Shown here piece by piece: positions 3,030 through 21,534 of a stretch of DNA of 21,609 nucleotides (its first letter is position 1; every line of letters starts with the position of its first letter). Under the pieces are notes generated by a model, which was not told the DNA's origin, searched no databases, and worked only from the letters and a program-made list of their open reading frames with translations. This stretch comes from Nostoc sp. ChiQUE01b (GTDB taxonomy: Bacteria; Cyanobacteriota; Cyanobacteriia; Cyanobacteriales; Nostocaceae). The stretch covers positions 8,047 through 29,655 of the forward strand of contig NZ_JAVRBM010000030.1 in the NCBI RefSeq assembly GCF_034531255.1, read 5' to 3'. The translations under genes were made by a program, and so were the position numbers.

Positions 3030-3063
3030 AAGGGGCTACATTAGCTTTTTTCTAAAGCCCCTT
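3030..3063. terminator. Hairpin between convergent genes (candidate bidirectional terminator)
   Basis: AAGGGGCT (3030-3037) and AGCCCCTT (3056-3063) form a perfect 8-bp stem around an 18-nt T-rich loop. The 3' arm overlaps the stop codon of the 3062..9007 gene. There is no clear U-tract after the stem on either strand. Confidence 0.35.
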
Positions 3064-6000
3064 ATCGCTGTTTCAACGCTGAAATCTCCTGCATGAATTG
3101 CACACCAGAATGTTCAGCCAGCTTGAGAAAATGCTCTACATCTTTCTCCCGCACTGTTGTCCGCTCAAGGCTATCGCCGTTGACTTGCAATATTGTCTCT
3201 GCTTTGCTGCCTGTTCGTGCTTGCACTGTCAGTTTGTCCCCTTGCTGCGTGCATTCATAGCGCCCATGCTTCAGGCTAACCCCGCCCCAGATGTCCAATT
3301 GCGCCTCTGTTGCCAGCAAGAGCTGCACCGTCTCCAATAATACCTGTCCCCGTTCCTGGTACGGGCGATACTTCGCCAAATCTCCTTCAATAATGTTTTG
3401 AAGATAGCGCGATAGGGGTGCGGACTCCTGGGCATTCTCCAACGTTTGCATGTGATGTCTACGTTCTGATTCCAGTCCCAAGTCACGAACTGCTTGGAGC
3501 CAGGTTTGTATGCTGAGGGCATCAGATGCTTCCGCATTCTCTTCGTTAGCTTCTGGCAGAGAATTTTCAGGGATAGTTTCACTCTGCGACGATATGCTGA
3601 ATGTTAAGGCAAGTGCAGGATTTTCGAGAGATTGTTCCTCACTATCTGTGAAGGTAAACTCCCTCTCTCCCCTGGTTTGTGAATTTAGGGATAACTGCTT
3701 CCGCATCGCCTCCCCAAATCCTTGATGCAGCAGGTTTCTGGAAAACGTGGTGGCATAAGAGCGATCGCAGTTTCGCCATTCCCTACCCAACGAAGTGACG
3801 GCTGTTTCAGCCAGGGTTAAGCCGCCATCCGTGTCGATGGTGAAAATCATCTCACTATTAATAAAAGTATCGCCGTTCTCGGTCAGATAATGCGTCAGGT
3901 ATAACCGATCATCATGCCGCTCGATGACCAGGGGGATAAACGGCTCATTCTCGATTTTGTGATGAAACTCTTCTCCCTTCATCACCGTCGAAGATAATCC
4001 CCCTCGTTCCAGCAGTTTGGCGATATTCTTCTCTGGCGTACCCCGTTGTGCCGCAGGAGGAGTGATCGCTGACGGCAGCTTGTTCACCGAATCAGTGCTG
4101 ATACCTGACTCCATATCTGGTTCAGGAACAGGAGAAGGAGTTTCAGGGACAGCTACAGGCATTTCAGCCACTTCAGCAAACGTCCCCAACGCTATCCCCA
4201 GCATCGCCCGTGCTGCTTCCCTCTGCTCATAGGCAGCCAGCGCATAATCCCGCTCTCGCATCACGAACGCCAGCACCGCTTCCAGTGCCTCTCCATCCAC
4301 CAGACATTCCATGCGATCGCCCACCGAATAAAACTCCGCTCCAGCAGCTTCTAGCAATTCCTCATCCAGATAATATTTACCGCCAGCATCTTTCGCTTTC
4401 GGTGTTTGTAGCAGGAAGGTTCCCCCCTGCCCTAGCTTGATGGTCAAGTGCTTATCCGCCGTTTTAAGCTGTCCGCCCTGTTCTGTCAGGAATCGCCACG
4501 CATCCTCAACGGTTGGCATGGTCACGCCCATTTGCTCCAGGGCAGCTTCGGCATCAAACCCCCGCGAGGTCAACAAGCCCTGACGAATGTTACCGTGGGC
4601 ATCCGTAAAATTGACCATCTTGCCGGGAAACTTCTCCCACGCCCGCAGCAGGTTCCCCGTGAACATCTGCCGTTTCTCCCGCGTCCGCGTTTGGTAATAG
4701 TCGAACAGATCGTAAACCGCTGTTCCCTCTGGCGTTTTATCAGTCCCTTCCACACGAACCGCATTCTCTTTGCCCGTGTTCACCTGCGACAGCGGCAGGG
4801 ATAGCTCCTGCACGGAATCTGCCAGCAACAACCGTATCTCCCAGGAGGACGGCGCAACAGGGTTGGCAGCAACACCCGTATGGTTTACACCCGCCACCAC
4901 CCCATAAAACACATCGTTTTTCTCGGTCGTCAGACACACCGCCTGCCCCACTGTCAACGCCTGCATCATATGCGTCACCTGATAAAACTGGTTATCAATG
5001 GTGGAGCTTCTGTCAGCCGGGACTTGCAATTTATACTGCCTTGCCTGCTCCTCAAGTGCTTCGATATCCGCCTTGACTTGCTCACAGGAGGCTTGCTGAA
5101 TGCTGCTTTGTGTCGCATCAGTTACCGTATCGGGCGGCGATAATCCTAAAGAGTCATGCAGCTTTTGCACCACCATTAGCGTTGTGTAGGGCTTGCGCGG
5201 CGTTTTCACATCAACAATTTCCGCATACACCGCCCCTGTAAACGGTGAATGACTGTTGGCATCGCTAGGCAACACCTCCATCCGTGCCAAGGTTTTAGCA
5301 TCGAGGTTGAGGGTGCTGGCTTCCAGAATCGATTCGCCCATTGCCTCCTGTGTCGCTACGAACTCCGTATATTTTTTCTCAATCAGGTCGTAAAGGGCTG
5401 ACTGCTCGGCAATAGGTAACAGGGGAATCCTGCCCGTCACCTTGCGGATTGAATCACCAGCGGATAAAGTGCCATGTAAAGGGTTGTGTGATGCTTGCAG
5501 TGGGTAATCAAGTCTTTCGTGAATATCAGGGTAAGCTTTCATCAGTTCGATGATTACCCGATCGCCGTACTCATTCATAAAATCCGGTACATTCTCCAAT
5601 GAAAACGCCCCAGACCGGGCGGCTGTGGTATTGGCATTGAGCGATGCCATCTTCCGCGCCAGCACTGCTCCCGGACGCTTTTCCGCTGGGATGTCTGCCA
5701 TCAGCAGTGTGAAATTGGGTGGCACAACCTGCCCAGTACGATGCACCCGCCCTAACATTTGCATGAACGAATTAATATCTGCTTCGGGTTGCGCCACAAT
5801 CATGTGCCGCTGCCGTTGGTCACGAAACCGCTCTGAGGCATGAAGCGAAATCCCTGTGGAACCAGAGCGGTTGAGCAGAATCACGTCAAGCTGTCCATCG
5901 TTAAAAGCGTTAACCGTCCGCACTGCCGCTTCTTTGCTACGCTCTGCGTTGCCGCGTCGCTGGTAAACCGTTGTGCCATCAGCGTTGTAGAGCGCGATAT

Positions 6001-9000
6001 GCTCCCGCCCCGTCACTTCCCCTACCCGATAACCCTCCTGGTTCAGCCGAAACGTAATGTAATCAATGGGACTGACCGGAATCTGGCTGAAATCAGTCTC
6101 GTTAATCAAATCCTGGATGGCGTGATATCTCGCTGTTGCTGCTATGCCCAATTCTTCATCAGTCAGTCTGTGGCAGGTCTTTTCACCATACGGATTCCCT
6201 AAAATGACATCACGGCTACGGTCTAAATACCGATGTAAGATTGTGCCGAAATCAGCATCCAGGGTATCGCCTGGGCGCAAATCTAGCATCTCAGCTTGAC
6301 GACCAATCATACTGCCCATTGTGTTTGACAGTGCCAGCACTGGCTTCTCCGGTTCTGGCTGACGCAGCAGGGATAGGGATTGCTGTACTGTTTCTTCGGC
6401 TTTGAGGGCAAACAACATCTGGTCAACAATGTTGTGCATCAGACTGGTAAAATTGGTACTGGTTGCCCCAGCCGCCCCTGTAGCATTATCCCCAAACGCC
6501 CGTTTTGCTTCGGCTTTCAGGTCTTTGTCCATTCCCTCAACCACATCCTGCTTCAGGCGGTCAAACTCCATAATCTCTGCCATAATCAGCGAGATGTTTT
6601 CCGCAACATCATGGTTGACCGGGGCAACAACCGAGTCAAACCGTACCCCTTCAAACGACCGCTCCCGGCGAATATATTGCCCTGATTCGGTCAACATTGA
6701 GGCGAGAGTTTGCTGCAACGGTACACCCCCCGATGCCACCAGTTCGGTCAGGTTCGCCATATTACTGAGGGCAAGCCGCATATCAGTACGAGAGTACAAA
6801 TCCATTACTTGCGGATTCTTGGCATAAGTGGCACTCGAATACACCACCCCAAGCGATCGCTGCACCAATTCCCGCACAAAATCCGCCCGGTTGGAAGCAC
6901 CCGCCGACTTGGCATTTTTATTGTTGGAGCCTCCCGCCTCATGGCTCTCATCCAGAATCACCAAGCTGTTGGGGGCAAACTGGCGCAGAAAATCCCGGCG
7001 ATAGGGTTCCTGCCTTTTGACCGTTTGCAATTGGGAGTACGTTGTAAAAATGGCATCGTACCTGCCTAAGTCTCCATCTGCCTGTATGCGTTTGAGTACC
7101 TGATGATGCTGTTTAGTGTTGGTTGACAGGGTGCGTCCATCTGGCAGCGGTAAGGTTAAATCGGGATTCGTGACCAACGGATTAAACCTCGGCATCCCGA
7201 TATCTTCTAAATCCCGAATCATGTCTGCATAGAGAGCTGGGTCTTTGGTCACAAAAATAGGTGTCCGCCCCGTAACATTCGCATAGCGAATCATCCCTGC
7301 TACAACGCGCCCCTTCCCAATCCCCGTTTGATCACCCAGGATAAACCCGCCACCTTTCTCCAGATTGGACACGGCCAGGGCAATCGCGTCCACCTGTTCC
7401 GCACTGAAGTGCTGGTGCAACTCCTCTGTTGTCCCATAAGCAAGGCGGTCAGCGACATACGCATCCAGTTCTGCCACCTGGCGCTCTAACTTCAACAGGG
7501 CTTGGTTAACACCCGTTTGCATGTTGGCGGGAACCAGTGTACCGATTGCCCGTGCCCCACTTTTGGGGTGATAGGGAAGCTGTTTCGGTTGTTCTACCGT
7601 AGTAGCAGGTCGATTGTTCCTATCAGCCACTCCTCCAGTGTCGGCTGTACGTCCGGCGTGTTGAATTTCCACAGTAGTCGTTCTATCCGTTCGCTGTTCG
7701 TTTCCACCTGCACCGGAAACGAGATTGCCAGAAATTGCAGCCGCAATTCGATAATGTCGCTCTCGAACACCAGGAACCGCGCCCAAGCTGTCTGCCATTC
7801 CTGTATCCCTTGGGGCGTGTGGGGTATCTCCGGTAACATCGGTCTGCGCTGATAAATTGAGAACGGGCGCGTCCTCACTAGGAGCATCTCGTGTGTCTCC
7901 TCTACCGACGCTTCCGCCTCCTCCATCCACATCTCGATCAGCCATTCCAAGCGACGGCACAGCAGTTCCTGATAACGGTTCTGACTCAACTGGGTTTCGT
8001 TCGCTGGTACTAGCACTGTGAAAACTCGCTCCTCCTCCAGGGGCGACCACACGTTCGGATCGGGAAAGTACGTCATCGAGAAATTCTCCCAGTTCATCAA
8101 AAGTTCGGTACAGACGCGGTACGTCCGCCGCAGGTAAGCGTCGGTCTGACTTTCCCCGACCATCAATCACGATCATATCGATGGGAAAGCCTGCCCCTTG
8201 TTTCCGGTAGAGATTGCCAAAAATCGAAAAATGGTCAACCACGTTGAAGTTTTGATACAGGGTATAGTAAAAACCCCGGCTCTCCCGGCTGTTATAGCGA
8301 TCGCTGCGGATATCTTCATCCATGCCCAGCTTGCCGCCCAAAATTAGCACCGCTCTGCCATCCGGCTTCATCGCTGACAACCCTTGCAGGGCAATGGCAT
8401 GGTCAATCTGGGTAGTCTGGAACTTGCCAAACTGAAACTGCTTTGGTCTTCCTGGTGATGCATCCACCGTCCCAAACGGGGGATTCATAATCACAACATC
8501 GTGCAGCTGACTCGGTGTAAAACGGCTGGCATCTGCTTCTGTCACCGTATAGCCCTGCTCCCGCAAATCCCCTGCCCGTGCCGGGTTTAACTCGTTGACC
8601 GTCACCTTGTCCGGGGTTGCTCCCAGCAACAACGCTCCATGCCCCGCACTCGGTTCATACACTGTTGTATCTGAATTGACACCAGCCAAGACAGAGGCAA
8701 GATAGGCAATGGGTAACGGGGTGCTGTACGCTTGCTGGGCAACACTGGTGCTAGAGCGCACATTTAGGGCTGGCTGGCGATTGTGCAATTCAACAAGCTG
8801 GCGATAAGCATCCTGCGGTGTCGCTGCTCCCGTTACAATATCCTGAGCAACACGAACTAAGGCGGATTCGACAACTTCATCCACCTGTTTGGCGAGTGGC
8901 GAACCAGGCGATACATATTCCCCAATGTATGGCACAGCAAACGCTCTCGCCTCGGTAATCGTAGAAAATCTACCTCCCGATGCAAAATGTTCCGTCAGGG

Positions 9001-9007
9001 CATCCAA
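3062..9007 (-). CDS. Giant fusion protein: N6-adenine DNA methyltransferase, low-complexity linker, SNF2/strawberry-notch-like helicase and a long C-terminal extension (P1 DarB-like architecture)
   Basis: Single 1981-codon ORF.
- Methyltransferase: motif I is VYEPSAGHGALLLG (aa 116-129) and motif IV is NPPF (nt 8485-8474).
- Helicase: Walker A is GDQTGIGKGR (7336-7307), DExH is LDESHEAGG (DESH 6952-6941), and motif VI is QMLGRVHRTGQ (about 5761-5729).
- Start: the only start candidate after the upstream stop is TTG at 9007. There is no in-frame ATG before the NPPF motif, and the first in-frame GTG (codon 25) lies inside the conserved N-terminal region. Confidence 0.9.
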   Translation of the reverse strand: MDALTEHFASGGRFSTITEARAFAVPYIGEYVSPGSPLAKQVDEVVESALVRVAQDIVTGAATPQDAYRQLVELHNRQPALNVRSSTSVAQQAYSTPLPIAYLASVLAGVNSDTTVYEPSAGHGALLLGATPDKVTVNELNPARAGDLREQGYTVTEADASRFTPSQLHDVVIMNPPFGTVDASPGRPKQFQFGKFQTTQIDHAIALQGLSAMKPDGRAVLILGGKLGMDEDIRSDRYNSRESRGFYYTLYQNFNVVDHFSIFGNLYRKQGAGFPIDMIVIDGRGKSDRRLPAADVPRLYRTFDELGEFLDDVLSRSERVVAPGGGASFHSASTSERNPVESEPLSGTAVPSLGMADRDVDGGGGSVGRGDTRDAPSEDAPVLNLSAQTDVTGDTPHAPRDTGMADSLGAVPGVRERHYRIAAAISGNLVSGAGGNEQRTDRTTTVEIQHAGRTADTGGVADRNNRPATTVEQPKQLPYHPKSGARAIGTLVPANMQTGVNQALLKLERQVAELDAYVADRLAYGTTEELHQHFSAEQVDAIALAVSNLEKGGGFILGDQTGIGKGRVVAGMIRYANVTGRTPIFVTKDPALYADMIRDLEDIGMPRFNPLVTNPDLTLPLPDGRTLSTNTKQHHQVLKRIQADGDLGRYDAIFTTYSQLQTVKRQEPYRRDFLRQFAPNSLVILDESHEAGGSNNKNAKSAGASNRADFVRELVQRSLGVVYSSATYAKNPQVMDLYSRTDMRLALSNMANLTELVASGGVPLQQTLASMLTESGQYIRRERSFEGVRFDSVVAPVNHDVAENISLIMAEIMEFDRLKQDVVEGMDKDLKAEAKRAFGDNATGAAGATSTNFTSLMHNIVDQMLFALKAEETVQQSLSLLRQPEPEKPVLALSNTMGSMIGRQAEMLDLRPGDTLDADFGTILHRYLDRSRDVILGNPYGEKTCHRLTDEELGIAATARYHAIQDLINETDFSQIPVSPIDYITFRLNQEGYRVGEVTGREHIALYNADGTTVYQRRGNAERSKEAAVRTVNAFNDGQLDVILLNRSGSTGISLHASERFRDQRQRHMIVAQPEADINSFMQMLGRVHRTGQVVPPNFTLLMADIPAEKRPGAVLARKMASLNANTTAARSGAFSLENVPDFMNEYGDRVIIELMKAYPDIHERLDYPLQASHNPLHGTLSAGDSIRKVTGRIPLLPIAEQSALYDLIEKKYTEFVATQEAMGESILEASTLNLDAKTLARMEVLPSDANSHSPFTGAVYAEIVDVKTPRKPYTTLMVVQKLHDSLGLSPPDTVTDATQSSIQQASCEQVKADIEALEEQARQYKLQVPADRSSTIDNQFYQVTHMMQALTVGQAVCLTTEKNDVFYGVVAGVNHTGVAANPVAPSSWEIRLLLADSVQELSLPLSQVNTGKENAVRVEGTDKTPEGTAVYDLFDYYQTRTREKRQMFTGNLLRAWEKFPGKMVNFTDAHGNIRQGLLTSRGFDAEAALEQMGVTMPTVEDAWRFLTEQGGQLKTADKHLTIKLGQGGTFLLQTPKAKDAGGKYYLDEELLEAAGAEFYSVGDRMECLVDGEALEAVLAFVMRERDYALAAYEQREAARAMLGIALGTFAEVAEMPVAVPETPSPVPEPDMESGISTDSVNKLPSAITPPAAQRGTPEKNIAKLLERGGLSSTVMKGEEFHHKIENEPFIPLVIERHDDRLYLTHYLTENGDTFINSEMIFTIDTDGGLTLAETAVTSLGREWRNCDRSYATTFSRNLLHQGFGEAMRKQLSLNSQTRGEREFTFTDSEEQSLENPALALTFSISSQSETIPENSLPEANEENAEASDALSIQTWLQAVRDLGLESERRHHMQTLENAQESAPLSRYLQNIIEGDLAKYRPYQERGQVLLETVQLLLATEAQLDIWGGVSLKHGRYECTQQGDKLTVQARTGSKAETILQVNGDSLERTTVREKDVEHFLKLAEHSGVQFMQEISALKQR

Positions 9008-10830: not shown

Positions 10831-11108
10831 AGTACGCTGAAAAAGAATCAAGCGAATTTTAAGAAACTGTGCGCTTATTTAATGAGAAATACAATTTCTG
10901 ATTAACACAAATAAATCTTGATATTTTTATCTCTTAGTTGAATGGTATTTATGATATATTTCTGCTTTCTTAGGTATAGAAAACGGAGCAATAATTTTAT
11001 CTTTTCTTCTTTGGCTTTTTGTGGTTTTTTCGTGAGCAGTTCTGCCTATCAGGAGTCAGTTTGCCCACGAAAATAACTCCTCTTCCTGTCCTGCTTCAAC
11101 AGGTGAGA

Positions 11109-11930
11109 ATGCTTCGGAAAAAAATTGTCCAGCTTGAGGCGGAAGGGTTGTGTCTGTTCGGCGCATGGTTGGAAAAGAACCGTCCAGGCAGTGTCCGAAG
11201 CCGCAGGCAGGTGTACTGGCAGCTTCGTTGCCGCACGGGCACATTACCCAATCGCAAGCAGTTGATGCATCTGGACAAAGAACAAGTCCCTATCTACCAA
11301 CAGGCAATTGCGAGAGGCAGGAAGATAAAGGCTTGCCAGCGACAGATACGGGATACCGAGCGTCGCATAGAAAGGCTGGTAGCGCGAGCCGAGCAACGCG
11401 GGATTGTGGTGCGTAATGTGTTGGGCGACCCCGATGCTTCGCCAGAATGGTACACACCTCCTGGCTATATTTCCCTTGTCCGCCAAGTGTTAGGGCATAT
11501 TGACCTTGACCCTGCAAGCAACAGCATGGCACAGGCGTGGATTCAGGCAGATGTTTACTACACGAAACAAGATGACGGTTTGCGGCAGCCGTGGTTTGGG
11601 CGCGTCTGGTGCAACCCACCCTACGGCAGTCCCGAAACCCGCTTGATGGCGCAACAGTTTCTGGAGAAAGCGATCGCGGCATATCAGGATGGTATGGTTG
11701 TGGCGGTAATCCTGCTCCTCAACCGCACAGGGGCAGCATGGTACAAGACTTTGCAACAACAGGTCACTGCTCTGTGCGAAGTGACGAAGCGGATAGCTTT
11801 CTTAGATGAAAATGGCGTACCCCAACCATCGCCCCGTTACTACAGCGACTTTTTATACCTGGGTCAAGAGCCAGAGCGGTTTCTGGATATCTTTAGCAGC
11901 ATTGGCACGGTACGGCAACTTGCACCCTAA
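11109..11930 (+). CDS. Phage-type DNA N6-adenine methyltransferase (Dam family, PF05869-like) with an N-terminal extension of about 95 aa
   Basis: The sequence PEWYTPPGYISLVRQVLGHIDLDPASN..DGLRQPWFGRVWCNPPYG..VILLLNRTGAAWY..KRIAFLD matches the EWYTP / DLDP / NPPY / R-x-x-F layout of this family. ATG 11109 is preceded by AGGTGAGA. The track start, TTG 11019, is an alternative. Confidence 0.8.
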   Translation: MLRKKIVQLEAEGLCLFGAWLEKNRPGSVRSRRQVYWQLRCRTGTLPNRKQLMHLDKEQVPIYQQAIARGRKIKACQRQIRDTERRIERLVARAEQRGIVVRNVLGDPDASPEWYTPPGYISLVRQVLGHIDLDPASNSMAQAWIQADVYYTKQDDGLRQPWFGRVWCNPPYGSPETRLMAQQFLEKAIAAYQDGMVVAVILLLNRTGAAWYKTLQQQVTALCEVTKRIAFLDENGVPQPSPRYYSDFLYLGQEPERFLDIFSSIGTVRQLAP

Positions 11931-12005
11931 TTTTTAAACGCCCTCTCCCACACTCTTAAAGAAAAGGGTGAAAATAGGGCGCGGACAGCCGCGCAAGAAT
12001 GGATG

Positions 12006-12164
12006 TGCCAGAGGCGCGGGCTGGGTCAAGGACAAGCCCTGCGGGTGCGCGGGGGGTCTCCCCAATTTTTTGCTTTCAGTATGTGACAAACACCGTGTCG
12101 CAAAAAACCGGGAGATACCCCTCCCCCCGCGCATCCTTGACCCAACCCTTCATCGCCCCTGGCA
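12006..12164 (-). other. Extended imperfect GC-rich hairpin (candidate single-strand initiation, single-strand promoter or secondary oriT-like element)
   Basis: The nested complementary arms are:
- 12006-12016 with 12154-12164 (10 of 11 bp).
- 12022-12032 with 12134-12144 (11 of 11 bp).
- 12046-12056 with 12123-12133 (11 of 11 bp).
- 12058-12062 with 12110-12114 (5 of 5 bp).
- 12066-12073 with 12100-12107 (8 of 8 bp).
Only the left arm has a bulge, 13 nt at 12033-12045. The element lies in the 276-nt non-coding spacer directly upstream of ardA. Confidence 0.6.
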
Positions 12165-12206
12165 AGCACAGAAGCATGAGCGAGAAAAAAAGAAAGGAAC
12201 TTAGCC

Positions 12207-12749
12207 ATGCTGAAGACGAAAAACAATAACAAAGCAGACCCGCAAATCTACATAGCTTGCCTTGCTGCTTATAATGCAGGGTATCTGCATGGGGAATGGG
12301 TGGATGCTACCCAGGATATTGACATCATCAGGAAAGAGATTAGCAGAATTCTAGAAACGTCTCCCGTAGCAGATGCTGAAGAGTACGCGATCCATGATTA
12401 TGATGAATTCTACAGTGCAGAGAGCATACTAGGCGAATATCCCAACCTTGAAGAAGTGGTTAAAGCCGCTGAATTTATTGCCGAACATGGAGAATTAGCC
12501 GGAAAGCTAATTGCTCACTATGGTGATCTTACGGAAGCCCTCGAAGCAATGGAAGAACGTTATCACGGGTGTTACCGAAGCCTAGCCGACTATGCTGAAC
12601 AATTCACTGAAGATACCTCAAGTGACATCCCTAAGCACCTGCAATACTACATCGACTACAAAAAAATGGCGCGGGACTGGGAATATAGCGGCGACATTTT
12701 CACCATAGAACTGGGTTTTGAAGAAGTCCACGTTTTTTCAAATCACTAA
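12207..12749 (+). CDS. ardA: Antirestriction protein ArdA (DNA-mimic inhibitor of type I restriction)
   Basis: The sequence PQIYIACLAAYNAGYLHGEWVD..EEYAIHDYDEF..YYIDYKKMARDW..VHVF matches the ArdA (PF07275) signature. AAAGGAA lies upstream of the ATG. The protein is acidic. Confidence 0.85.
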   Translation: MLKTKNNNKADPQIYIACLAAYNAGYLHGEWVDATQDIDIIRKEISRILETSPVADAEEYAIHDYDEFYSAESILGEYPNLEEVVKAAEFIAEHGELAGKLIAHYGDLTEALEAMEERYHGCYRSLADYAEQFTEDTSSDIPKHLQYYIDYKKMARDWEYSGDIFTIELGFEEVHVFSNH

Positions 12750-12828
12750 CAAGAATGGGGCTGCCAATCACCACAACCGCAGCCCCACCTCCTAAACATC
12801 ACTACAAATTTTTAGGAAGTCTCCACAC

Positions 12829-13311
12829 ATGAAAACCTTTCCCAATTTTCAGACCTATAAAATGTTTCGCCTGTCCAATTTTGGCATGAGAACCGCCCGT
12901 TATGCCTTCAGCCGAATGAAAGCAGAACAGACTATAACAGCATTACCCTATCCCACTGCATCACTGGAGCATAACACTTGCTTTGTATGGAAAGGATTTA
13001 CCATTCACATTCAGGTTTTTTATGACGAGGATGCAGATTACTCCTGGCTTGGTCAATTCTCCGACACGCCAAAAGAAGATGCTATTCCCCATGAGCCAGG
13101 AAACCACCGTACCTACAATTATTTCAACCGAGCTTGCACGATTACTGAGTATCAAGAAGAGTACAGCCGATTGGGGTATGCACAGCATGAAAGCTGGCTT
13201 TTAGCTAAAAAAGCAGTGCAAGAAGACTACAAGCGGATGCTTCACTATAACGAATCTGGAAGCCCCTACATTGAATTAACGGCAAGCAAAGAGAACATCA
13301 CCCCTTGGTGA
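12829..13311 (+). CDS. Hypothetical protein, apparently split by a frameshift (the coding signal continues in another frame to 13432)
   Basis: The 160-aa ORF has AGGAAG upstream of the ATG. After TGA 13309-13311, the frame shifted by +1 stays open from 13280 to TAA 13430-13432. That frame reads GEATISIADWDYVQETIIDDDLVEAAIADAEQNLKQLCTCL and has no start codon of its own. Confidence 0.55.
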   Translation: MKTFPNFQTYKMFRLSNFGMRTARYAFSRMKAEQTITALPYPTASLEHNTCFVWKGFTIHIQVFYDEDADYSWLGQFSDTPKEDAIPHEPGNHRTYNYFNRACTITEYQEEYSRLGYAQHESWLLAKKAVQEDYKRMLHYNESGSPYIELTASKENITPW

Positions 13312-13474
13312 AGCGACTATCAGCATTGCTGATTGGGATTACGTGCAAGAGACAATTATTGATGACGACCTGGTTGAAGCAGCGATCGCTGACGCTGAAC
13401 AGAATTTGAAACAGCTTTGTACCTGTTTGTAATGAAATCAATTTTCCATGACTTTTATCTAAAGGAATCCTAAA

Positions 13475-13807
13475 ATGACTAAAATCACCTCCCCCACCAA
13501 ACGTGAAATCCTGGAACAAGAAATTTTATCTGTTTTCAGAACATTTGACAGCAACGCTTCTCCCCTGCTGGTCAAAGAGATTGCCGAATGCGCCATAAAC
13601 TTCTTTTATGACCCGGATAAAGCTATAGCAATTGTTTGGAGTATAGAAGATATAAATGCTATCCGAGAAGACCTTAATGATGAACAAGCATTTATGGTTT
13701 TGGAAGATGCCTATAACAATTATGTCGAAGATAGTCCTATAACGTGGAAAGTTTTGAAATTCGTAGCTGATGATTTGTTTCCACGGGAAGAAGCAGAAGA
13801 AACATGA
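13475..13807 (+). CDS. Small, strongly acidic hypothetical protein (110 aa)
   Basis: AAAGGAA lies upstream of the ATG. By my count there are about 24 D/E against 10 K/R. I recognised no family. Confidence 0.6.
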   Translation: MTKITSPTKREILEQEILSVFRTFDSNASPLLVKEIAECAINFFYDPDKAIAIVWSIEDINAIREDLNDEQAFMVLEDAYNNYVEDSPITWKVLKFVADDLFPREEAEET

Positions 13808-13930
13808 AACGCTTTTACCGCAGCAAGTTTTTTAGAACCTACCAAGAAGTATTTCAGGCAACACCTGATGATGTAGAATTTGATGCTTTGATAAATTATT
13901 AATTCTAATAATATTAAAAAGGATAGCCTT

Positions 13931-14431
13931 ATGACTTTAACTCATAAACCCTTCTCAGTACAAATATTTTTAATTGATGCAAACCCCGATGGAATGCTAA
14001 CAGCCGAAATTCCATTTCAATGGACAGGTCATGTGTTATCTTTTCCAAGAAAAGACATCAAACGAGTTTTGGAACGTGAAGAAGCCCAGCAGCCTGGCAT
14101 TTATCTATTGGTTGGGGAGAGAGAAGAACAAAAAACACTTTATGTAGGTAAGGGCGGTGAACTCTTAGAGCATATTAAAGAGCAAGAACAACAAGAATGG
14201 TGGTCAACGGGGGTATTGTTGATCAATCAAGAATATCCCTTGAGTATGTTGTATCTATCCTACCTACAAGACCAACTTAGAAAAAAAGCAGAGAACGGAA
14301 ACAAGGTTATTTTAGCTAACCCTCTTGACGTTGAACCATTAAGACTAGACGAGTCGGCAACGGTTGCAATGGAAGGATTTTTAGATAAATTTATCTTTGT
14401 CCTTTTGGTATTAAACTTTAAATTCTTTTAG
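13931..14431 (+). CDS. GIY-YIG-like N-terminal module protein, truncated (the usual C-terminal DUF4357 part is missing)
   Basis: The sequence FSVQIFLIDANPDGMLTAEIPFQWTGHVLSFPRKDI..PGIYLLVGE..TLYVGKG..WW..YLSYLQDQL..MEGFLDKFIFVLLVLNF follows the layout of the family that is normally about 290 aa with a DUF4357 C-terminus. Here the ORF stops right after the ..VL..F segment. Confidence 0.55.
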   Translation: MTLTHKPFSVQIFLIDANPDGMLTAEIPFQWTGHVLSFPRKDIKRVLEREEAQQPGIYLLVGEREEQKTLYVGKGGELLEHIKEQEQQEWWSTGVLLINQEYPLSMLYLSYLQDQLRKKAENGNKVILANPLDVEPLRLDESATVAMEGFLDKFIFVLLVLNFKFF

Positions 14432-14469
14432 AAACTGAATCATTAATTGACTATAAAAATTTTCATTTC

Positions 14470-14512
14470 AAGGCTGTTCCATCACCGGAGTAGCCTTTTG
14501 TGTTTCTTCTTT
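14470..14512 (+). terminator. Candidate intrinsic terminator for the plus-strand block
   Basis: AAGGCTGTTCC (14470-14480) pairs with GGAGTAGCCTT (14487-14497) at 9 of 11 positions. The stem is followed by TTGTGTTTCTTCTTTGTGATTTTT. It lies between convergent genes. Confidence 0.45.
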
Positions 14513-15376: not shown

Positions 15377-15498
15377 AATCCAACTTGTATCCGTTTCGCC
15401 ACAAATTAACAGAATTATGGTGTACACCATAAAAACAGAAAGCGGATACCTCTCCCCCAATGGTTTCTTCTTTCCTTCGCAGTAAAATTTCTTTCCTT

Positions 15499-16152
15499 TT
15501 AAATCCCCTCAAACATCTCTTTCATTTTGTCCTGGGATATTTCGGTTAGAGTTTTAGGCTTATCTGCAACTGGCTGTTTAGAAATAACTTGCATCGTCTC
15601 TTGGGTTTCTGATTCCTGCTCCACACGCTGAGGTGTTACCTTCTGCTGTTGTGCTGCCCTGTCCCTTATGTCCTGATTTTCTGTTTTCTCCTCCCGTAAT
15701 CCGTCCTCACTTGCCAGTGTCTGAAGTGCCTCCTGGTAGTATTGGGCCTCCTCCTGCTGGCGTTTAACTGAGTTGGTGCTGTGCTGTCCTTTCTTCCCGT
15801 TAGTCTGTTCATCTTGAAATTGCCGGGGTTGGGTCGTAGTTGCAGACACAGACAGTGTTTTCTTCTCTGGTGTTACTGTCTCGCGGGGAGGAAGTCCAAA
15901 CAGATCGCGATCGCGGTCAATGAGGTACTGGTCTAATCCCTGCATTACCATGTCTTCAGTTAGCCACCCCCATTCCACCATCTTGTCGAGCAGGGCACCC
16001 TTGATGAACTTGCGGCGATTTTCGAGGCTGCGTTCTGCTTTCTGGACTTTGTGTTCTTGTTTACGTTCAGCACGTTTTTCCTGCTTGAGTTTTTCGCTAT
16101 AGTGGCTAAGAAGTTCATTGAGACGGTCAATGCGTTTGGCGCGGCTAGGCAT
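15499..16152 (-). CDS. Ti-plasmid TraD-like relaxosome accessory protein
   Basis: An N-terminal coiled-coil is followed by ENRRKFIKGALLDKMVEWGWLTEDMVMQGLDQYLIDRDRDLFGLPP. This matches the TraD (PF06412-like) pattern RKRDTRRKIllGAavl....L..dR.LFGL. The gene is divergent from the relaxase gene across the predicted oriT. The C-terminal half is Q/E-rich and low in complexity. Confidence 0.6.
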   Translation of the reverse strand: MPSRAKRIDRLNELLSHYSEKLKQEKRAERKQEHKVQKAERSLENRRKFIKGALLDKMVEWGWLTEDMVMQGLDQYLIDRDRDLFGLPPRETVTPEKKTLSVSATTTQPRQFQDEQTNGKKGQHSTNSVKRQQEEAQYYQEALQTLASEDGLREEKTENQDIRDRAAQQQKVTPQRVEQESETQETMQVISKQPVADKPKTLTEISQDKMKEMFEGI

Positions 16153-16289
16153 GAGGTGAGTCCTCCCGAAACAAGCGGCAGACGATGTATTTTTGATGAT
16201 GAACGGAGAATTACCGCGTTACGAAAACCACACGGTAGGGGACAGTTTGTTTTTTCCCAACAATAATTAGTGCGGTCAAAGAAAAGCGC

Positions 16290-16340
16290 GGCTGCCGCTG
16301 TGGTTGCGCGGACACGCGCTGGGGTTTGGGGGCGGCAGCC
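16290..16340. repeat. 9-bp inverted repeat on the leading side of the predicted nick
   Basis: GGCTGCCGC (16290-16298) pairs with GCGGCAGCC (16332-16340). The loop contains the small hairpin GCGCG-GACA-CGCGC (16306-16319). Confidence 0.6.
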
Positions 16341-16422
16341 TCCAAGCGCAGTTATACATTAAGGGACGCTTCGCTTTGAAAAGCTACCTCGCAAGCTCGG
16401 CATCTTTTCAACCCTTAATGTA
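16341..16422 (-). other. Predicted oriT core: inverted repeat plus a nick region like that of MOBQ-family (RSF1010/R1162-type) relaxases
   Basis: The outer repeat is a perfect 11 bp (16355-16365 / 16412-16422) and the inner repeat is 8 bp (16376-16383 / 16404-16411). On the minus strand the repeat is followed at once by TAACTGCGCTTGG, compared with TAAGTGCGCCCT in R1162/RSF1010. The element sits about 145 nt upstream of the relaxase gene and in the same relative orientation as in RSF1010. Confidence 0.6.
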
Positions 16423-16565
16423 CTGCGGCAAAGGGGGTTCCCCTCTGCACACCCCAACCACAGGGCGACTATTTGTATGTAACATAGTCGTAACACGTCT
16501 GTAGATTGTTTGTTGTAATTCGTTAAAATTTAGGAAAATTCCCACCCATTGGTGAATGAAATGGG

Positions 16566-19500
16566 GTGATAACAGTGCAAGCAGGGTATTTTCGGGAAGA
16601 AGTAAAAATTGTTTCACGCGGTAATAACCAGAACGTCATTCGCAAAGCTGCCTATGATGCAGGGGTACGACTGGTCGATACGCGGGACGGAAAAGTGTAT
16701 GACTTTTCTAACAAGCGGGATGTGTATAGTACTGAAATTCTCGCCCCCGCGAATGCTCCTGACTGGATGCTGGATCGGTCAAAACTGTGGAACGGTGTTG
16801 AACAAACAGAAGACAAATCCCGTCGCCGCGAGGATGCCCAGCTAGCACGGGAAGTGATTTTGTGTTTCCCGGCCTGCCTCAGCCATGATGAGAAAATCGC
16901 CGCTGCCCGTGAGTATGTGCAAAGCGAGTTTGTCTGGAAGGGCATGGTGGCAGATGTGGCGTACCATTTCAACGGCAAGACTGCCCATAACCCGCATGTC
17001 CATGTTCTCCTGACGATGCGCGATATTGATGGTAAGGGTTTTGGCAAAAAGAATCGCTCGTGGAACAACCCGGCAGAATGGAAAGACCGGGGCGAAAACA
17101 TTGAAGGGTGGCGCAAACGGTGGGCAGATACCCTCAACAAACACCTGGAGCGGGGTGGGTACGATGTACGGGTAGACCATCGCGGCAATCTGGCACAGAA
17201 TACTGACCGCCTGCCCCAAGTTCATGAAGGAGCCAATGTCACCAACCTGCGCCGTCGTCATGCCCAAAACCCGGACAAATATCAACAGAATTTTGATAAC
17301 AACCAGGTCATCCAGCACAACGAAGACATCAAGCACCGTAACGCCGAGCGGGAAGAATTGAAACAAACGATCAAAGCGTTGCAGTCAGAACTTCGCCACG
17401 AACACATCAAGCAAGCGCATTACGAGCAACGCCGGGAAGAACGTATTCTGAAACGGCAGATGCTGTCAGCGGAAAAAACTACCGAGCAAGACAACAGTCC
17501 TTATACTCTTGACCGTACCAGAACCTACGAAACAGCGACCAGCGTTGCCACCACCCTCACCCGGCAACTGCCAGCCTCGGAGTTTCATCAGCGAGCAAAC
17601 GCGCTTGTCACTTCTACCATGCAACACGATTCTTCTTCCACGCAAAATCCCTCTGCCATCCAGATTCGCAAAGATGACCCACCGGGCTGGAAACCGCGCA
17701 GACGCGAACCAAATGAGCCAACCGACTGGACATGGCGACTGGTACGCGAGCAACTGGAAGCAATGGGCGGTGATGGGAATTTTGAGATTGGCATTCTTGA
17801 CCGTGCCAGCGAAAAGATGCAGAACAAGACTTGGCACAAGCATGACATTCTTCGGGTTGATCCAGAAACCAAACGCACGCCGATTCTGAATTACCTCAAA
17901 TACGAAAACAGCCAGGGCAAGGATATTTTTATCCGTCTTGCCCCAACCAAAGACAGTAAACAACAAGGCTTGGTGCTGATTGATGATATCGACCCGGTAA
18001 CGGTGGAAGACCTGAAGGACAAGGGACTTGCCCCTGCCGTAGTCATCGAAACCTCATACAAGAATTGTCAAGCCTGGATACGGGCATCCAAAGAACCCAT
18101 CGAACGAGAAACTGCCACCCACCTGGCGAAACTGTTGACCAGAGAAGCGGGTGGCGACCCTGGTAGTGCTTCTTACCAGCATTACGGGCGGCTAGCTGGC
18201 TTCACGAACCGGAAACCTGACCATCAGGATATGTACACAGGCAGGCATCCGTATGTAAAACTGCTGTCAGCTTACGGAACAACCGCCCCAGAGGGGGAAC
18301 AGTGGCTGGCACAGGCGCAGTCAGCCGCAGCGATCGCACGGGAGAAACAACAAGAGGCAGCCGCCCTGCGTGACCAACGTGGCAACAGGGAAGCAACTGA
18401 ACAGGAGAAAGAGAAAGCCCTCAGAGCGTTCGAGAGCAGCTATGCTCATGCCTTGCGCCACTATGGCACAAACAAGGATTACAGCGCACGGGACTGGGCA
18501 CTGACCAAAAATCTTGCCAAACTGGGCTATAGTCAGGATGCCCTCCAGTACGCCCTGCGCTGGGGCAGTCCCGATCTGGAGAAGCGGAAACCGGGACATG
18601 AAGATGATTATGTCGCTCGCACGGTTGCCAAAGTGTTTGAGCATCCAGAGGTATTGCAGGCGATCGCTGAACGGGAAGCCAGACGAAAGAAACGAGAACA
18701 GGAGAATCAGCGCCAGCAACCATTACCCCTGACACAACCCACAGAAAAACAAAATCCTACAGAACCGCCATTCCCCTCCCCTACTCCCACACCATCATCG
18801 TCACAGGCAAAGGAGCAAACTGCTGTACCAGAACAATCCTTGACCGAAGACGAACGCCAGCTTATCGAAGCCATGAAATGGCTGAATGATGGCAAGGAAC
18901 GAGGTAAGCAGGAGCGGCGGCCGGAACACCATCTTCCTGTCCGTCCTCCTGCCAATGACAAACAATCCTATGCTGATAGAGCAGAGCCAGCAACCCCGAT
19001 GCCGGATACAGGGGAGAAAGTTTCATTGGACGCAGAGGCAGAGATCGTCAACACCTTCCCCACCCCTGCTTCATCCGACCAAAACCCCTCCTCGAAAGGG
19101 TCAGCCAAAGTTCCCGTGTACTGGAACAGTTATTATCGCTGGCTCCAGACACAGCAAATCGTCCGCCAGCCCAAACCTGCCAGAATTGACCCCGGTACTG
19201 CCTCCGCCAAACGACCCCCTGTCCCCATCAAAGCAGAACCCGTCGGCGACCTCGACGCTGACAGCGTTGCTGCCATCATTAATGCCGCGCACCAGTCGAA
19301 AAATGCGACCCAGCAACTTCGTACCGCCTCCTGGGCGTACCAGAACTTTAACCAGGACGAAGGACGCTGGAACAAGTGCAAACTGGAATATTTCCGGGAA
19401 CTGCACCGTGTTCACCAAGCCTTCGGACGTGATGAGGCATTAAACCCGAAAACTGATATCGAAATCGCCCTTAAGCTGCGGATGGCGGGGTTTTCCGTCA

Positions 19501-19865
19501 CGCAGATTTACCGCACTATCCAGGAAGCCAGCCCGGTTGCAACATCCCTACCGTCGCAAGAACATCAGTTTGTGTACTTGAAAAAAGCGATCCAACCCTA
19601 TCTGCAATCCTCCCAAACCCGGACAGTCGCCAATAATTTTCAGTACGAGCGGGAACGGCAGGCAAAGAGAACCATCACAGACCCCACCCAATTGCAAAAC
19701 CATCTTGCTGAACGCCGCCTGGAAAAACTCGGACTGGCAACCCCTGTGTCAACCCAAACCCAAAATCCAACACCCCAACAGACGCGATCGCCCCAGCCAC
19801 AACCTAACCATCGACCATCCCCTTTACCCCAGCACAAGCGTGATGATTGCGAGCCAGAGCGGTAA
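16566..19865 (+). CDS. MOBQ-family relaxase (MobA/MobL, TraA-like) fused to a RepB'-type primase domain, with a Pro/Gln-rich C-terminal region
   Basis: - Relaxase: SRGNNQNVIRKAAYDAG (Tyr codon at 16653-16655), LWNGVEQTE, DAQLAREVI, and the His triad HNPHVHVLLT (16986-17003).
- Primase-like segment, about 17750-18340: GKDIFIRLAP..GLVLIDDID..APAVVIETSYKNCQAWI..GGDPGSASYQHYGRLAGFTNRKP.
- Start: GTG 16566 or GTG 16575, the latter with GGGGTGA upstream. Confidence 0.9.
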   Translation: MITVQAGYFREEVKIVSRGNNQNVIRKAAYDAGVRLVDTRDGKVYDFSNKRDVYSTEILAPANAPDWMLDRSKLWNGVEQTEDKSRRREDAQLAREVILCFPACLSHDEKIAAAREYVQSEFVWKGMVADVAYHFNGKTAHNPHVHVLLTMRDIDGKGFGKKNRSWNNPAEWKDRGENIEGWRKRWADTLNKHLERGGYDVRVDHRGNLAQNTDRLPQVHEGANVTNLRRRHAQNPDKYQQNFDNNQVIQHNEDIKHRNAEREELKQTIKALQSELRHEHIKQAHYEQRREERILKRQMLSAEKTTEQDNSPYTLDRTRTYETATSVATTLTRQLPASEFHQRANALVTSTMQHDSSSTQNPSAIQIRKDDPPGWKPRRREPNEPTDWTWRLVREQLEAMGGDGNFEIGILDRASEKMQNKTWHKHDILRVDPETKRTPILNYLKYENSQGKDIFIRLAPTKDSKQQGLVLIDDIDPVTVEDLKDKGLAPAVVIETSYKNCQAWIRASKEPIERETATHLAKLLTREAGGDPGSASYQHYGRLAGFTNRKPDHQDMYTGRHPYVKLLSAYGTTAPEGEQWLAQAQSAAAIAREKQQEAAALRDQRGNREATEQEKEKALRAFESSYAHALRHYGTNKDYSARDWALTKNLAKLGYSQDALQYALRWGSPDLEKRKPGHEDDYVARTVAKVFEHPEVLQAIAEREARRKKREQENQRQQPLPLTQPTEKQNPTEPPFPSPTPTPSSSQAKEQTAVPEQSLTEDERQLIEAMKWLNDGKERGKQERRPEHHLPVRPPANDKQSYADRAEPATPMPDTGEKVSLDAEAEIVNTFPTPASSDQNPSSKGSAKVPVYWNSYYRWLQTQQIVRQPKPARIDPGTASAKRPPVPIKAEPVGDLDADSVAAIINAAHQSKNATQQLRTASWAYQNFNQDEGRWNKCKLEYFRELHRVHQAFGRDEALNPKTDIEIALKLRMAGFSVTQIYRTIQEASPVATSLPSQEHQFVYLKKAIQPYLQSSQTRTVANNFQYERERQAKRTITDPTQLQNHLAERRLEKLGLATPVSTQTQNPTPQQTRSPQPQPNHRPSPLPQHKRDDCEPER

Positions 19866-20098: not shown

Positions 20099-20306
20099 AA
20101 CACAGCCAGATCAAACTTCGTGATCAAAACCTGTCTCCTGCCCTGCCAGGGACGATGGAGCATTGCCAGTATTGTTCTAGCTTATAAAATAAAAACTATC
20201 CGCTAGAACAAGGTCGTCGAAAATGCGTCAATAATCTTGAAAACCCTTTAGTTGTTGAAAGTGGGTAACACTTGGGGAAACAATCTCAAATTTTGACGAA
20301 AAAGAT

Positions 20307-20341
20307 AAAGCCCTGTGTTGGCGAAAACCAGACGGGGCTTT
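20307..20341. promoter_or_regulatory. Stem-loop in the repA leader (attenuator, or terminator of a minus-strand countertranscript)
   Basis: AAAGCCCTG (20307-20315) pairs with CGGGGCTTT (20333-20341), 9 bp including one G-T pair. The stem is followed by ATCGTTTTG on the plus strand and by ATCTTTTTCG on the minus strand. It lies 33 nt upstream of the repA ATG. Confidence 0.4.
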
Positions 20342-20373
20342 ATCGTTTTGCTCTAAAAGTACGGAGACCTTCA

Positions 20374-21534
20374 ATGGAGCGGAAATCCGGCATCGTCAAG
20401 AGGATTCAGCAGGCATCACAAGCGATCGCTCAAGCACCCCCCACCTTGGCGGAACTGGCGTTTACACCAAGAGAACTGGTGCAGGCTACCCTGCCCCATC
20501 GTGATCCAGGGAATGTGCCTGTATGGGTAAGACGAAATGGGCAGTATGGCTTATCGATTCAGCCAGGATGGGACATCGCTAAAAACTGCTCGATTGGGTA
20601 TCCTTTTGGCACTCTTCCCAGGTTGTTAATGTTCTGGCTGACGGCAGAGGCTGTAAGAACAAATAATAAACTGATTAAGTTAGGAGAAAGCCATACACAT
20701 TTTTTGAAAGGATTAGGATTAGACCCTGACAGAGGCGGAAAATGCAGCGATTCTTTTCGCGTTAAAAACCAGTGGCTACGATTAACCAATGCAAAAATAT
20801 CATTTCAATATTGGGGAAATTTTAACGGTAAACAACATCAATCTTTTTTAAATTTAGCTATTGCTGAACGTTCTGTTGTGTGGTGGGAAGAAAAAGGAAA
20901 GGGACGTTTAGAAGAAGAGGGAGGATTTATTGAACTTACGGACAGGTTTTTCCAAGCCATAACACAAAGTCCCATTCCTTTAGATTTTAGAGCATTACAA
21001 GCGATTAAAAATTCACCGTTAGCGATTGATGTCTACTCATGGGCTACGTTACGCGCCTATGCGGCTCAACAGAAAGATAAGCCCCATACTGTTGCCTGGG
21101 AGGTACTGCTAAATCAATTTGGCAGTGATTATCGAGACGTGAAAGACTTTAAAAGATACTTCAAATTAGCCTTGGAGAAGGTTCAATGCGTTTATCCCTG
21201 GCTTCAATTTGAGTATATTAAAGGTGGTATTACTATTAAACCAAGCTCTCCCTCTGTTAGTTACAGGTCTTTAAAGAAAAATTCTAAATTGATAACCGCA
21301 GAAACGTCAGAGAAGGCACTGCTGACTTCAAAGAGTAATCACGAACTAAATCTTTGTGTTTCTTCTAAAGCATTTGAAGAAGCGGTATTTCTCATTACTA
21401 ATGCAGACACAGGCTGGTGCAAATACGCTTTAGAGAAACAGTTCTATGACTATGCCCGAAAGAAGGGCATCCCCAAAAATGTTGATAAAGCGTTTCTGGG
21501 CTTTGTGAGAAAAAAGGTCACGCAAAAACCTTAA
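20374..21534 (+). CDS. repA: Plasmid replication initiator, RepA_C (PF04796-like) family
   Basis: The sequence FTPRELVQATLPHRDP..WVRRNG..GYPFGTLPRLLMFWLTAEAVRT..IKLGESHTHFLKGLGL..GG..ISF..FFQAI..PIPLDFRALQAIKNSPLAIDVYSWATLR..QFGSDY..FK..VYPWL matches the family layout. ATG 20374 is preceded by GGAGA. The track start at 20272 is a TTG upstream of the leader hairpin and is less likely. Confidence 0.85.
   Translation: MERKSGIVKRIQQASQAIAQAPPTLAELAFTPRELVQATLPHRDPGNVPVWVRRNGQYGLSIQPGWDIAKNCSIGYPFGTLPRLLMFWLTAEAVRTNNKLIKLGESHTHFLKGLGLDPDRGGKCSDSFRVKNQWLRLTNAKISFQYWGNFNGKQHQSFLNLAIAERSVVWWEEKGKGRLEEEGGFIELTDRFFQAITQSPIPLDFRALQAIKNSPLAIDVYSWATLRAYAAQQKDKPHTVAWEVLLNQFGSDYRDVKDFKRYFKLALEKVQCVYPWLQFEYIKGGITIKPSSPSVSYRSLKKNSKLITAETSEKALLTSKSNHELNLCVSSKAFEEAVFLITNADTGWCKYALEKQFYDYARKKGIPKNVDKAFLGFVRKKVTQKP

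Follow-up and report, generated by a model that had tools for sequence, protein, structure and literature searches.

Genes and features of the locus

We analysed a 21,609-nt stretch of Nostoc sp. ChiQUE01b DNA (hereafter the window), the features of which are collected in Table 1. Two divergent genes, one for a relaxase-primase and one for a MobC-type protein, flank a 413-nt intergenic region that holds a perfect inverted repeat (IR1), a putative nick core and a second, smaller hairpin (IR2).

Table 1. Coordinates of the features in the window (a slash within a sequence marks the predicted nick)
Feature	Position	Strand	Description
WD40-repeat protein	249-1649	+	466 aa, about 10 WD40 repeats
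DUF4351 protein	2406-3029	+	
Strawberry-notch-type helicase ORF	3062-9007	-	1981 aa; AAA_34, Helicase_C_4, DUF6908
Predicted leading-region gene cluster	11019-14431	+	All transcribed toward oriT, 2-5 kb from the predicted nick
Dam-type N6-adenine methyltransferase	11019-11930	+	Pfam Dam, 3e-13
ArdA anti-restriction protein	12207-12749	+	Pfam ArdA, 5e-42
Three unassigned ORFs	12829-13311, 13475-13807, 13931-14431	+	Third matches phrog_12629, E = 6e-28
mobC	15499-16152	-	217 aa; encodes a relaxosome accessory protein; divergent to the relaxase gene
Predicted nick core	16346-16355	-	5'-ATAACTGCG/C-3'; single TAA[GC]TGCGC in the window; register homologous to the RSF1010, pSK41 and pTiC58 cores
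Outer helix, nick-side half	16347-16351		CGCAG on +, CTGCG on minus; five bases 5' of the predicted nick
IR1, nick-proximal arm	16355-16365		TACATTAAGGG on +; 11/11 complementary to 16412-16422
Insert inside IR1	16366-16411		46 nt; inner hairpin P2 and GCGAAGC mini-hairpin
GCGAAGC mini-hairpin	complement of 16374-16368	-	Within the IR1 insert
P2 inner hairpin	16376-16388 / 16399-16411		Within the IR1 insert
IR1, distal arm	16412-16422		CCCTTAATGTA on +; 11/11 complementary to 16355-16365
Outer helix, far half	16423-16427		CTGCG on +, CGCAG on minus; 5' flank of IR1
IR2	16432-16444		Small second hairpin AGGGG-GTT-CCCCT, relaxase side; read from sequence
MOBQ relaxase and RepB'-type primase fusion	16566-19865	+	1099 aa; Pfam, NCBIfam, BLAST
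RepA_C-type replication gene	20272-21534		Pfam

The relaxase-primase ORF is intact and contains the Pfam domains MobA_MobL (aa 24-231) and RepB_primase (aa 462-689). Its score with the NCBIfam MobQ model was 203.7 (cutoff 200) and that with the TraA_Ti model TIGR02768 was 187.7 (cutoff 590), and the protein has no helicase domain. The relaxase and primase domains showed 28% (E = 7e-19) and 36% (E = 2e-47) identity to RSF1010 MobA, respectively. Residues Y30, E96 and H134/H144/H146 align with Y25, E74 and H112/H120/H122, the catalytic residues of MobA (PMC6856555), and Y30, H134, H144 and H146 were invariant in our alignment A1. The best solved structure for the relaxase was that of NES, a staphylococcal nicking enzyme (4HT4, E = 1e-30). 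The C-terminal ~400 aa (aa ~700-1099; 18666-19865) are Pro/Gln-rich in parts, have no counterpart in RSF1010 MobA and matched nothing in Pfam, NCBIfam or PHROG. The closest relaxase in PLSDB was that of Calothrix sp. 336/3, with 50% identity, and the relatives in PLSDB and in a large protein collection had relaxase identities of 50% or less.

The divergent gene had been labelled TraD-like in the initial annotation, which likened the locus to the traA/oriT/traCD layout of Ti plasmids. Neither part of this reading held. The protein belongs to no Pfam or NCBIfam family, gave no alignment with pTiC58 TraD and nothing meaningful with TraC, and we dropped the label. It is instead a homolog of the IncQ-type MobC, with 45% identity to RSF1010 MobC over 60 aa in BLASTP (E = 2e-12), and its 150 tblastn matches in PLSDB plasmids were all annotated as 'mobilization protein (C)'. 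Tblastn searches of the window with pTiC58 TraC, TraD and TraG found nothing, and RSF1010 MobB gave no match at E <= 1. Because the divergent gene encodes a MobC homolog and the relaxase is fused to a primase, as in RSF1010 MobA, and not to a helicase as in Ti-type proteins, the gene layout is best read from the sequence as mobC - oriT - mobA::repB as in RSF1010, not as traA/traCD.

The replication gene of the window is of the RepA_C type in place of IncQ RepA or RepC, according to Pfam scans of the larger ORFs. Genes for WD40-repeat and DUF4351 proteins are associated with cyanobacteria. Since both are present here and the best plasmid match was from Calothrix sp. 336/3, the plasmid lineage is probably cyanobacterial. 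Large Strawberry-notch-type helicase proteins are common on conjugative elements; the N-terminal ~530 aa of the ORF of this type in the window have no family match. On the mobC side of the intergenic region, the methyltransferase gene, ardA and the three unassigned ORFs form a probable leading-region cluster. Its orientation is the one that anti-defence and methylase genes are reported to take in leading regions (PMC11541004), provided that the minus strand is the transferred strand.

The inverted repeat and the predicted nick site

The initial annotation had proposed an oriT at a perfect 11-bp inverted repeat, and every coordinate of this anatomy was confirmed. The arms TACATTAAGGG and CCCTTAATGTA are complementary at 11 of 11 positions, with 46 nt between them. 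The inner repeat TTGAAAAG/CTTTTCAA (16376-16383 / 16404-16411) is likewise present and extends to 13 nt at 85% (16376-16388 / 16399-16411). The minus-strand sequence given as directly following the repeat was also correct; it reads TAACTGCGCTTGG (complement of 16354-16342) and places TAACTGCG/C immediately after IR1.

Among the inverted repeats of the 21.6-kb window with loops of up to 60 nt, only IR1 was perfect over 11 bp or more. In first-order Markov simulations, 0.39 such repeats arose by chance per window and ~0.0075 per 413-nt intergenic region. TAA[GC]TGCGC occurred once in the window when both strands were scanned, and this single occurrence abuts IR1 exactly. IR1 alone is weak evidence, but IR1 together with the core at the exact offset is not a product of chance. 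The single-stranded fold of the minus strand had a z score of -4.4, and 0/200 shuffles folded as well.

For reference, the oriTs of RSF1010, pSK41 and pTiC58 were verified against sequence records. MobA(1-186) cleaves CAGTTTCTCGAAGAGAAACCGGTAAGTGCG/CCCTCCC, and a 10-bp inverted repeat hairpin lies upstream of the RSF1010 nic site (PMC4814116). The MOBQ consensus is NWACCNNTAAGTGCGCCCTYNN (PMC3832669). The RSF1010 oriT-mobC sequence matched IncQ plasmids at 100%, and in an annotated IncQ record the direction from repeat to nick runs into mobC and away from mobA. Together, PMC4814116 and the orientation of the IncQ record bear out the R1162/RSF1010 anatomy that the initial annotation had set out, in which the inverted repeat is followed by a core nicked 8 nt further on, on the strand complementary to the mobA coding strand. 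Its comparison of the window with this anatomy was equally sound: 7 of the 8 nt of the RSF1010 core recur at the same offset, and the order of nick core, repeat and relaxase gene and the strand relationship are those of RSF1010, with 82 relaxase loci independently giving the same strand and register (see below). The alignment with known MOBQ oriTs, which had been suggested as a check, gave the same grammar and strand layout for RSF1010, pSK41 and pTiC58.

The minus strand ATAACTGCG/CTTGG matched TAAGTGCGC at 8 of 9 positions, in columns that are invariant in our family alignment A2. The core carries C where every verified experimentally mapped site has G or T (TAACTGCG vs TAAGTGCG or TAATTGCG), and the sequence after the predicted nick is CTTGG, not CCCT. 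The CCCT tail is partly kept in the window (C-TT), likewise in many family members. By homology, the minus strand is predicted to be cut where the complements of 16347 (G) and 16346 (C) meet; the relaxase gene starts 220 nt downstream of this site.

Three features lie beyond those of the initial annotation: an outward extension of the palindrome, the GCGAAGC mini-hairpin in the insert, and IR2. An IR2-like hairpin was found 5' of the flank in 18/32 family loci, a descriptive count without a shuffle control. No Rfam family was found anywhere in the window, and no terminator-like site at IR1.

Further out, the oriT core is enclosed by a distal inverted repeat, CTGTGGTTG/CAACCACAG, at 16298-16306 and 16455-16463 (also 16226-16232). 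The 7-mer TGTGGTT/AACCACA occurs three times in the intergenic region; for the entire window, ~1.3 occurrences are expected in each orientation. The pair also flanks the Calothrix oriT (L001 4642-4648 and 4911-4917), and it was absent from the Crocosphaera locus (L003) and from the intergenic region of L084. This repeat may be a candidate binding site for MobC or another accessory protein.

Comparison across relaxase loci

A blastn search with 15400-17400 gave no match in PLSDB, and the comparison was therefore made through the relaxase protein. We gathered 82 loci with relatives of the relaxase domain, namely the Calothrix locus (L001), the Crocosphaera locus (L003) and 80 metagenomic loci; a scan of genome contigs yielded one locus, L003. 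These loci came from searches seeded with the window relaxase and show the behaviour of the family, not the function of this copy. One locus, L085 (P0051), had just 182 nt upstream and no core, and was uninformative.

In the 700 nt upstream of the 82 relaxases, TAA[G/C]TGCGC was found 38 times, each time on the strand opposite to the relaxase gene, and was absent from the relaxase strand itself; the other 308 kb of these loci contained it once. Of the 38 cores, 35 had a perfect hairpin of 6-11 bp that ended 0-3 nt ahead of their TAA. The core T-A-A-x-T-G-C-G-C was invariant in the 34-locus alignment A2, and the hairpin arms varied. The IR1 stem was nonetheless maintained across the 34 loci: 94% of the cells were paired vs 5-60% in slid controls, 7 of 8 homologous stem pairs changed on both sides, and the covariation score was matched by 0/500 shuffles. 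The window is in register with this family grammar, and the fit is strong evidence, at the level of sequence comparison, for the predicted oriT assignment, nicked strand and nick register.

Predicted pairing between nick pentamer and far flank

In the minimum-free-energy fold, the palindrome extends outward from IR1. The five bases 5' of the predicted nick pair with the far flank across a 3-nt TAA bulge (outer helix in Table 1). Within the family, the flank follows the core. A CGCAG flank was found only in the two loci with a CTGCG core (the window and Calothrix), and CGCAC where the core is GTGCG. Further matching pairs of core and flank were GTGGG/CCCAC, GCGTG/CACGC, GTGCT/AGCAC, GCGCG/aGCGC and, in pTiC58, TTGCG/CGCAA, with a few exceptions (L061, L041). 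The 5' flanks were out of register in the expanded MAFFT alignment A3, so a structurally anchored test was used in place of column-based pair counting, with sites also taken from pTiC58 (L086 2501-2540) and pSK41 (L087 1499-1540). A class's own flank was its best match for 7 of 9 core classes, and 17 of the 362,880 class-label permutations scored as well (p about 5e-5).

This covariation suggests selection for pairing between the pentamer just 5' of the MOBQ nick and the far hairpin flank, with ATAA bulged, a proposal better supported than the priming role considered below for the insert. It would imply that a functional conformer hides the nick site at the foot of a lengthened stem from which ATAA bulges. 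The pairing, if formed, would need to melt before cleavage; the role of the outer helix is a putative one. In RSF1010, a GCGCAC located still further upstream (L002 2975-2980), past a second hairpin, could allow a similar junction to close. A limited literature search found no description of core/flank covariation. The covariation could provide an in-silico rule by which MOBQ nick sites are located and the nicked strand is chosen. Nested repeats at an oriT are not new: pIP501 is described as having two repeats, a perfect IR1 and an IR2 that is imperfect and segmented. Only the branched hairpin and the core/flank covariation across the family merit following up here.

The branched hairpin

When the minus strand was folded, IR1, P2 and the GCGAAGC mini-hairpin formed a three-way junction. 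The 44-nt insert of Calothrix has the same branched architecture, with a z score of -6.2. Among the 35 family hairpins, only these two have large IR1 loops (46 nt in the window, 44 nt in Calothrix); the loop is 2-18 nt long in the other 33 and 2-3 nt in 30 of the 35. In L084, the best protein relative, the loop is a plain one of 3 nt.

C-GNA-G triloops tip many of the family IR1 hairpins, often as the exact GCGAAGC mini-hairpin, and GAA loops are also present in the RSF1010 and pSK41 hairpins. GCGNAGC is described as an unusually stable DNA mini-hairpin (PMC13037366). The window has kept GCGAAGC inside the insert, 2 nt from the nick-proximal arm, which suggests that an extra hairpin probably entered 5' of an ancestral loop.

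In RSF1010, a 6-bp stem works as well as the 10-bp stem, and only the base of the stem is contacted (PMC4814116). Since cleavage there needs only the stem base, the insert, which lies high in the stem, should by analogy be compatible with function and not block nicking. Any role of its own is putative. We consider it rather unlikely that the oriT hairpin was elaborated to a three-way junction in this cyanobacterial clade to load or prime the fused RepB'-type primase. The idea derives from position: the junction would sit at the 3' end of the transferred strand, and a primer made there could be extended across the entire strand. Moreover, judging from the sequence, the primase appears to have no obvious alternative start site, the replicon being non-IncQ and ssiA/ssiB-like sites not being seen. 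We located ssiA and ssiB in RSF1010 and then compared them with the window and the insert. Neither had significant similarity in the window, where we found just scattered 11-mers at E >= 0.13, and the insert showed no resemblance to these RepB' priming sites. Priming from the insert is therefore speculative.

Two further candidates were seen in this comparison. An octamer shared near IR2, GTGTGCAG, was rejected, being neither collinear with ssiA nor conserved in Calothrix. A weak match to an 'ssi grammar' at 14464-14510 (+), the sole one in the window, consists of CATTTC, a hairpin with a 6-bp stem (AAGGCT...AGCCTT) and TTGTG; this match, located between two ORFs and on the non-transferred strand, is probably due to chance. 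For finding branched-hairpin relatives in cyanobacteria, ATAACTGCGC beside relaxase-primase genes can serve as a search pattern.

Assignment of the locus and alternative explanations

The locus combines a nick core, an adjoining repeat ~8 nt from the predicted nick, an intergenic position, the strand layout and the relaxase motifs of the MOBQ class, and its layout agrees with the general properties of oriTs (bioRxiv 10.1101/2024.01.30.577996). In all likelihood, 16342-16444 is the core of a MOBQ-class conjugative transfer origin.

There is a slim chance that this oriT is a decayed or orphan copy that has fallen out of use. The core is off consensus at one position and in the CCCT tail, the window has no T4SS or coupling protein, and the databases hold no close relatives. 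However, the relaxase-primase ORF is uninterrupted throughout its 1099 aa and has kept every catalytic residue, MobC is intact, and the repeat is perfect (11/11). Furthermore, the change in the core is compensated in the flank and is common to Calothrix, which argues for continued selection.

It is harder still to believe that the palindrome is not itself a nick site but serves chiefly as an operator of the divergent promoters of mobC and the relaxase gene, to which a dimeric regulator binds in duplex form. Palindromes are typical of operators, this one sits between divergent genes, and relaxase binding at the pIP501 oriT autoregulates the tra promoter. An operator, however, leaves the invariant and asymmetric ATAA-xTGCG-C core, which matches mapped nick sites, unexplained. 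Many family hairpins are tipped by C-GNA-G loops, and such loops favour single-strand hairpins. In addition, the one weak promoter-like site found near IR1 is clear of the repeat. A regulatory role is likely to exist alongside nicking and is then no true rival to a transfer origin.

Nicking of the + strand 3' of the other arm (ATGTA-CTGCG/G, near 16427/16428), by which the relaxase gene would enter the recipient first, is highly improbable: the near-palindrome does place CTGCG right after the IR1 arm on the + strand too, and the same holds in Calothrix (CACTGCGCC) and Crocosphaera (AGTGCG), but the sequence after the + strand pentamer is not conserved, 0/38 strict cores lie on the relaxase-coding strand and the invariant ATAA spacer is present on the minus-strand side only. 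In RSF1010, pSK41 and pTiC58 alike, the nicked strand is the one opposite the relaxase gene, and the ardA/methylase cluster is placed and oriented as expected for minus-strand transfer. The nicked strand is for these reasons predicted to be the minus strand.

Proposed mechanism of transfer

With a MOBQ-class oriT nicked on the minus strand, MobC and the relaxase-primase would assemble on oriT as a relaxosome, in which the relaxase would recognise the base of the IR1 hairpin and the 3' single-stranded ATAA-CTGCG of the minus strand. Tyr30 would cleave the bond that joins G (complement of 16347) to C (complement of 16346), staying covalently attached to the 5' end. The window yielded neither a coupling protein nor a T4SS or MobB homolog, and transfer would hence depend on functions encoded elsewhere. 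A helper T4SS would export the minus strand 5' to 3'. The gene mobC would enter the recipient first, then the ardA/methylase cluster, and the relaxase gene and IR1 last. After transfer, IR1 would refold and present the core for rejoining in the termination reaction, and the fused primase would presumably prime complementary-strand synthesis in the recipient. Henderson and Meyer reportedly found in 1996 that the R1162 primase is active in transfer. We infer both the direction of transfer and the need for a helper from this arrangement.

In the literature searched, we came across no description of a cyanobacterial oriT of this type. The analysis provides a well-supported call of the oriT and its nicked strand for a plasmid lineage without a close relative in PLSDB or the large protein collection. 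With the leading side of the plasmid fixed in this way, the ardA/methylase cluster can be read as establishment and anti-restriction genes. In practical terms, an oriT of ~100-170 bp together with mobC and the relaxase could be used for mobilisable cyanobacterial vectors.

Comparison with known transfer systems

One close counterpart is RSF1010/R1162 (IncQ-1, MOBQ1). Both systems have a divergent mobC, the oriT and a relaxase-primase fusion, with homologous MobC, relaxase and primase (E = 2e-12, 7e-19 and 2e-47, respectively) and the nicked strand opposite the relaxase gene. In both, an inverted repeat is followed by TAA-xTGCG/C, with the nick 8 nt past the repeat. They differ in several respects. 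The window core has C for G at position 4 and CTTGG for CCCT after the nick, and its hairpin consists of 11-bp arms with a 46-nt branched insert, as opposed to 10-bp arms with a GAA loop in RSF1010. The relaxase domain is 28% identical to that of MobA and the protein has ~400 additional C-terminal aa. Of a strict IncQ-1 module, the window contains the relaxase-RepB' primase fusion and the divergent mobC; a mobB nested in mobA was not found, nor was an IncQ replicon (RepA, RepC and an oriV with ssiA/ssiB), and the replicon is of the RepA_C type.

The oriT of pSK41 reads aGCAC-GCGAACG-gaa-CGTTCGC-ATAA-GTGCG/CCC, and its nicked strand is opposite the relaxase gene. This plasmid and pLW1043, with the NES relaxase, share with the window the grammar of flank, hairpin, ATAA and pentamer, with partial outer pairing (GCAC/GTGC). 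NES is also the closest solved relaxase to the window protein. In the pSK41/NES family, the core is constant, and the repeat varies and sets specificity (PMC4993578). The TraA protein of pIP501 is an IncQ-type relaxase that cuts at GpC (PMC4981023), and the perfect IR1 and imperfect, segmented IR2 of pIP501 are comparable with IR1 and IR2 of the window. In contrast to the window, pSK41 and pIP501 are conjugative Firmicutes plasmids with relaxases that lack a primase fusion and with a simple hairpin, and pSK41 has no adjacent IncQ-type MobC.

The pTiC58 oriT reads CGCAA-g-GCGTCGC-gtca-GCGACGT-ATAA-TTGCG/CCCTTGG, again with the nicked strand opposite the relaxase gene. It has the same grammar and strand layout as the window, and even a CTTGG-like tail, and its core and flank form a third covarying state (T with A). 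However, TraA of pTiC58 is a relaxase-helicase, whereas the window relaxase carries a primase. The divergent operon of pTiC58 is traC-traD(-traG), whereas the divergent gene of the window is without similarity to TraC or TraD, and TraG is absent. The two hallmarks of a Ti-type Dtr system, a TraA relaxase-helicase and a divergent traC-traD(-traG), are thus both missing from the window.

The plasmid unnamed1 of Calothrix sp. 336/3 (NZ_CP011383) is an uncharacterised relative, and its record has no oriT annotation. Upstream of its mobQ lie a ATAACTGCG/C core and a CGCAG flank as in the window, together with a 44-nt IR1 insert with a three-way-junction fold, an IR2 rich in G and the distal TGTGGTT/AACCACA repeats. 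It differs from the window in its IR1 arm (ACATTGC vs TACATTAAGGG) and in the sequence of the insert, and the two gave no DNA-level BLAST match.

Judged by its sequence, the element appears to add one more member, from a plasmid lineage that has been sampled poorly, to the well-known MOBQ oriT class, with nothing to surprise a conjugation specialist. Its oriT is very probably an ordinary member of the RSF1010/pSK41/Ti class, unusual only in its much enlarged, branched hairpin.
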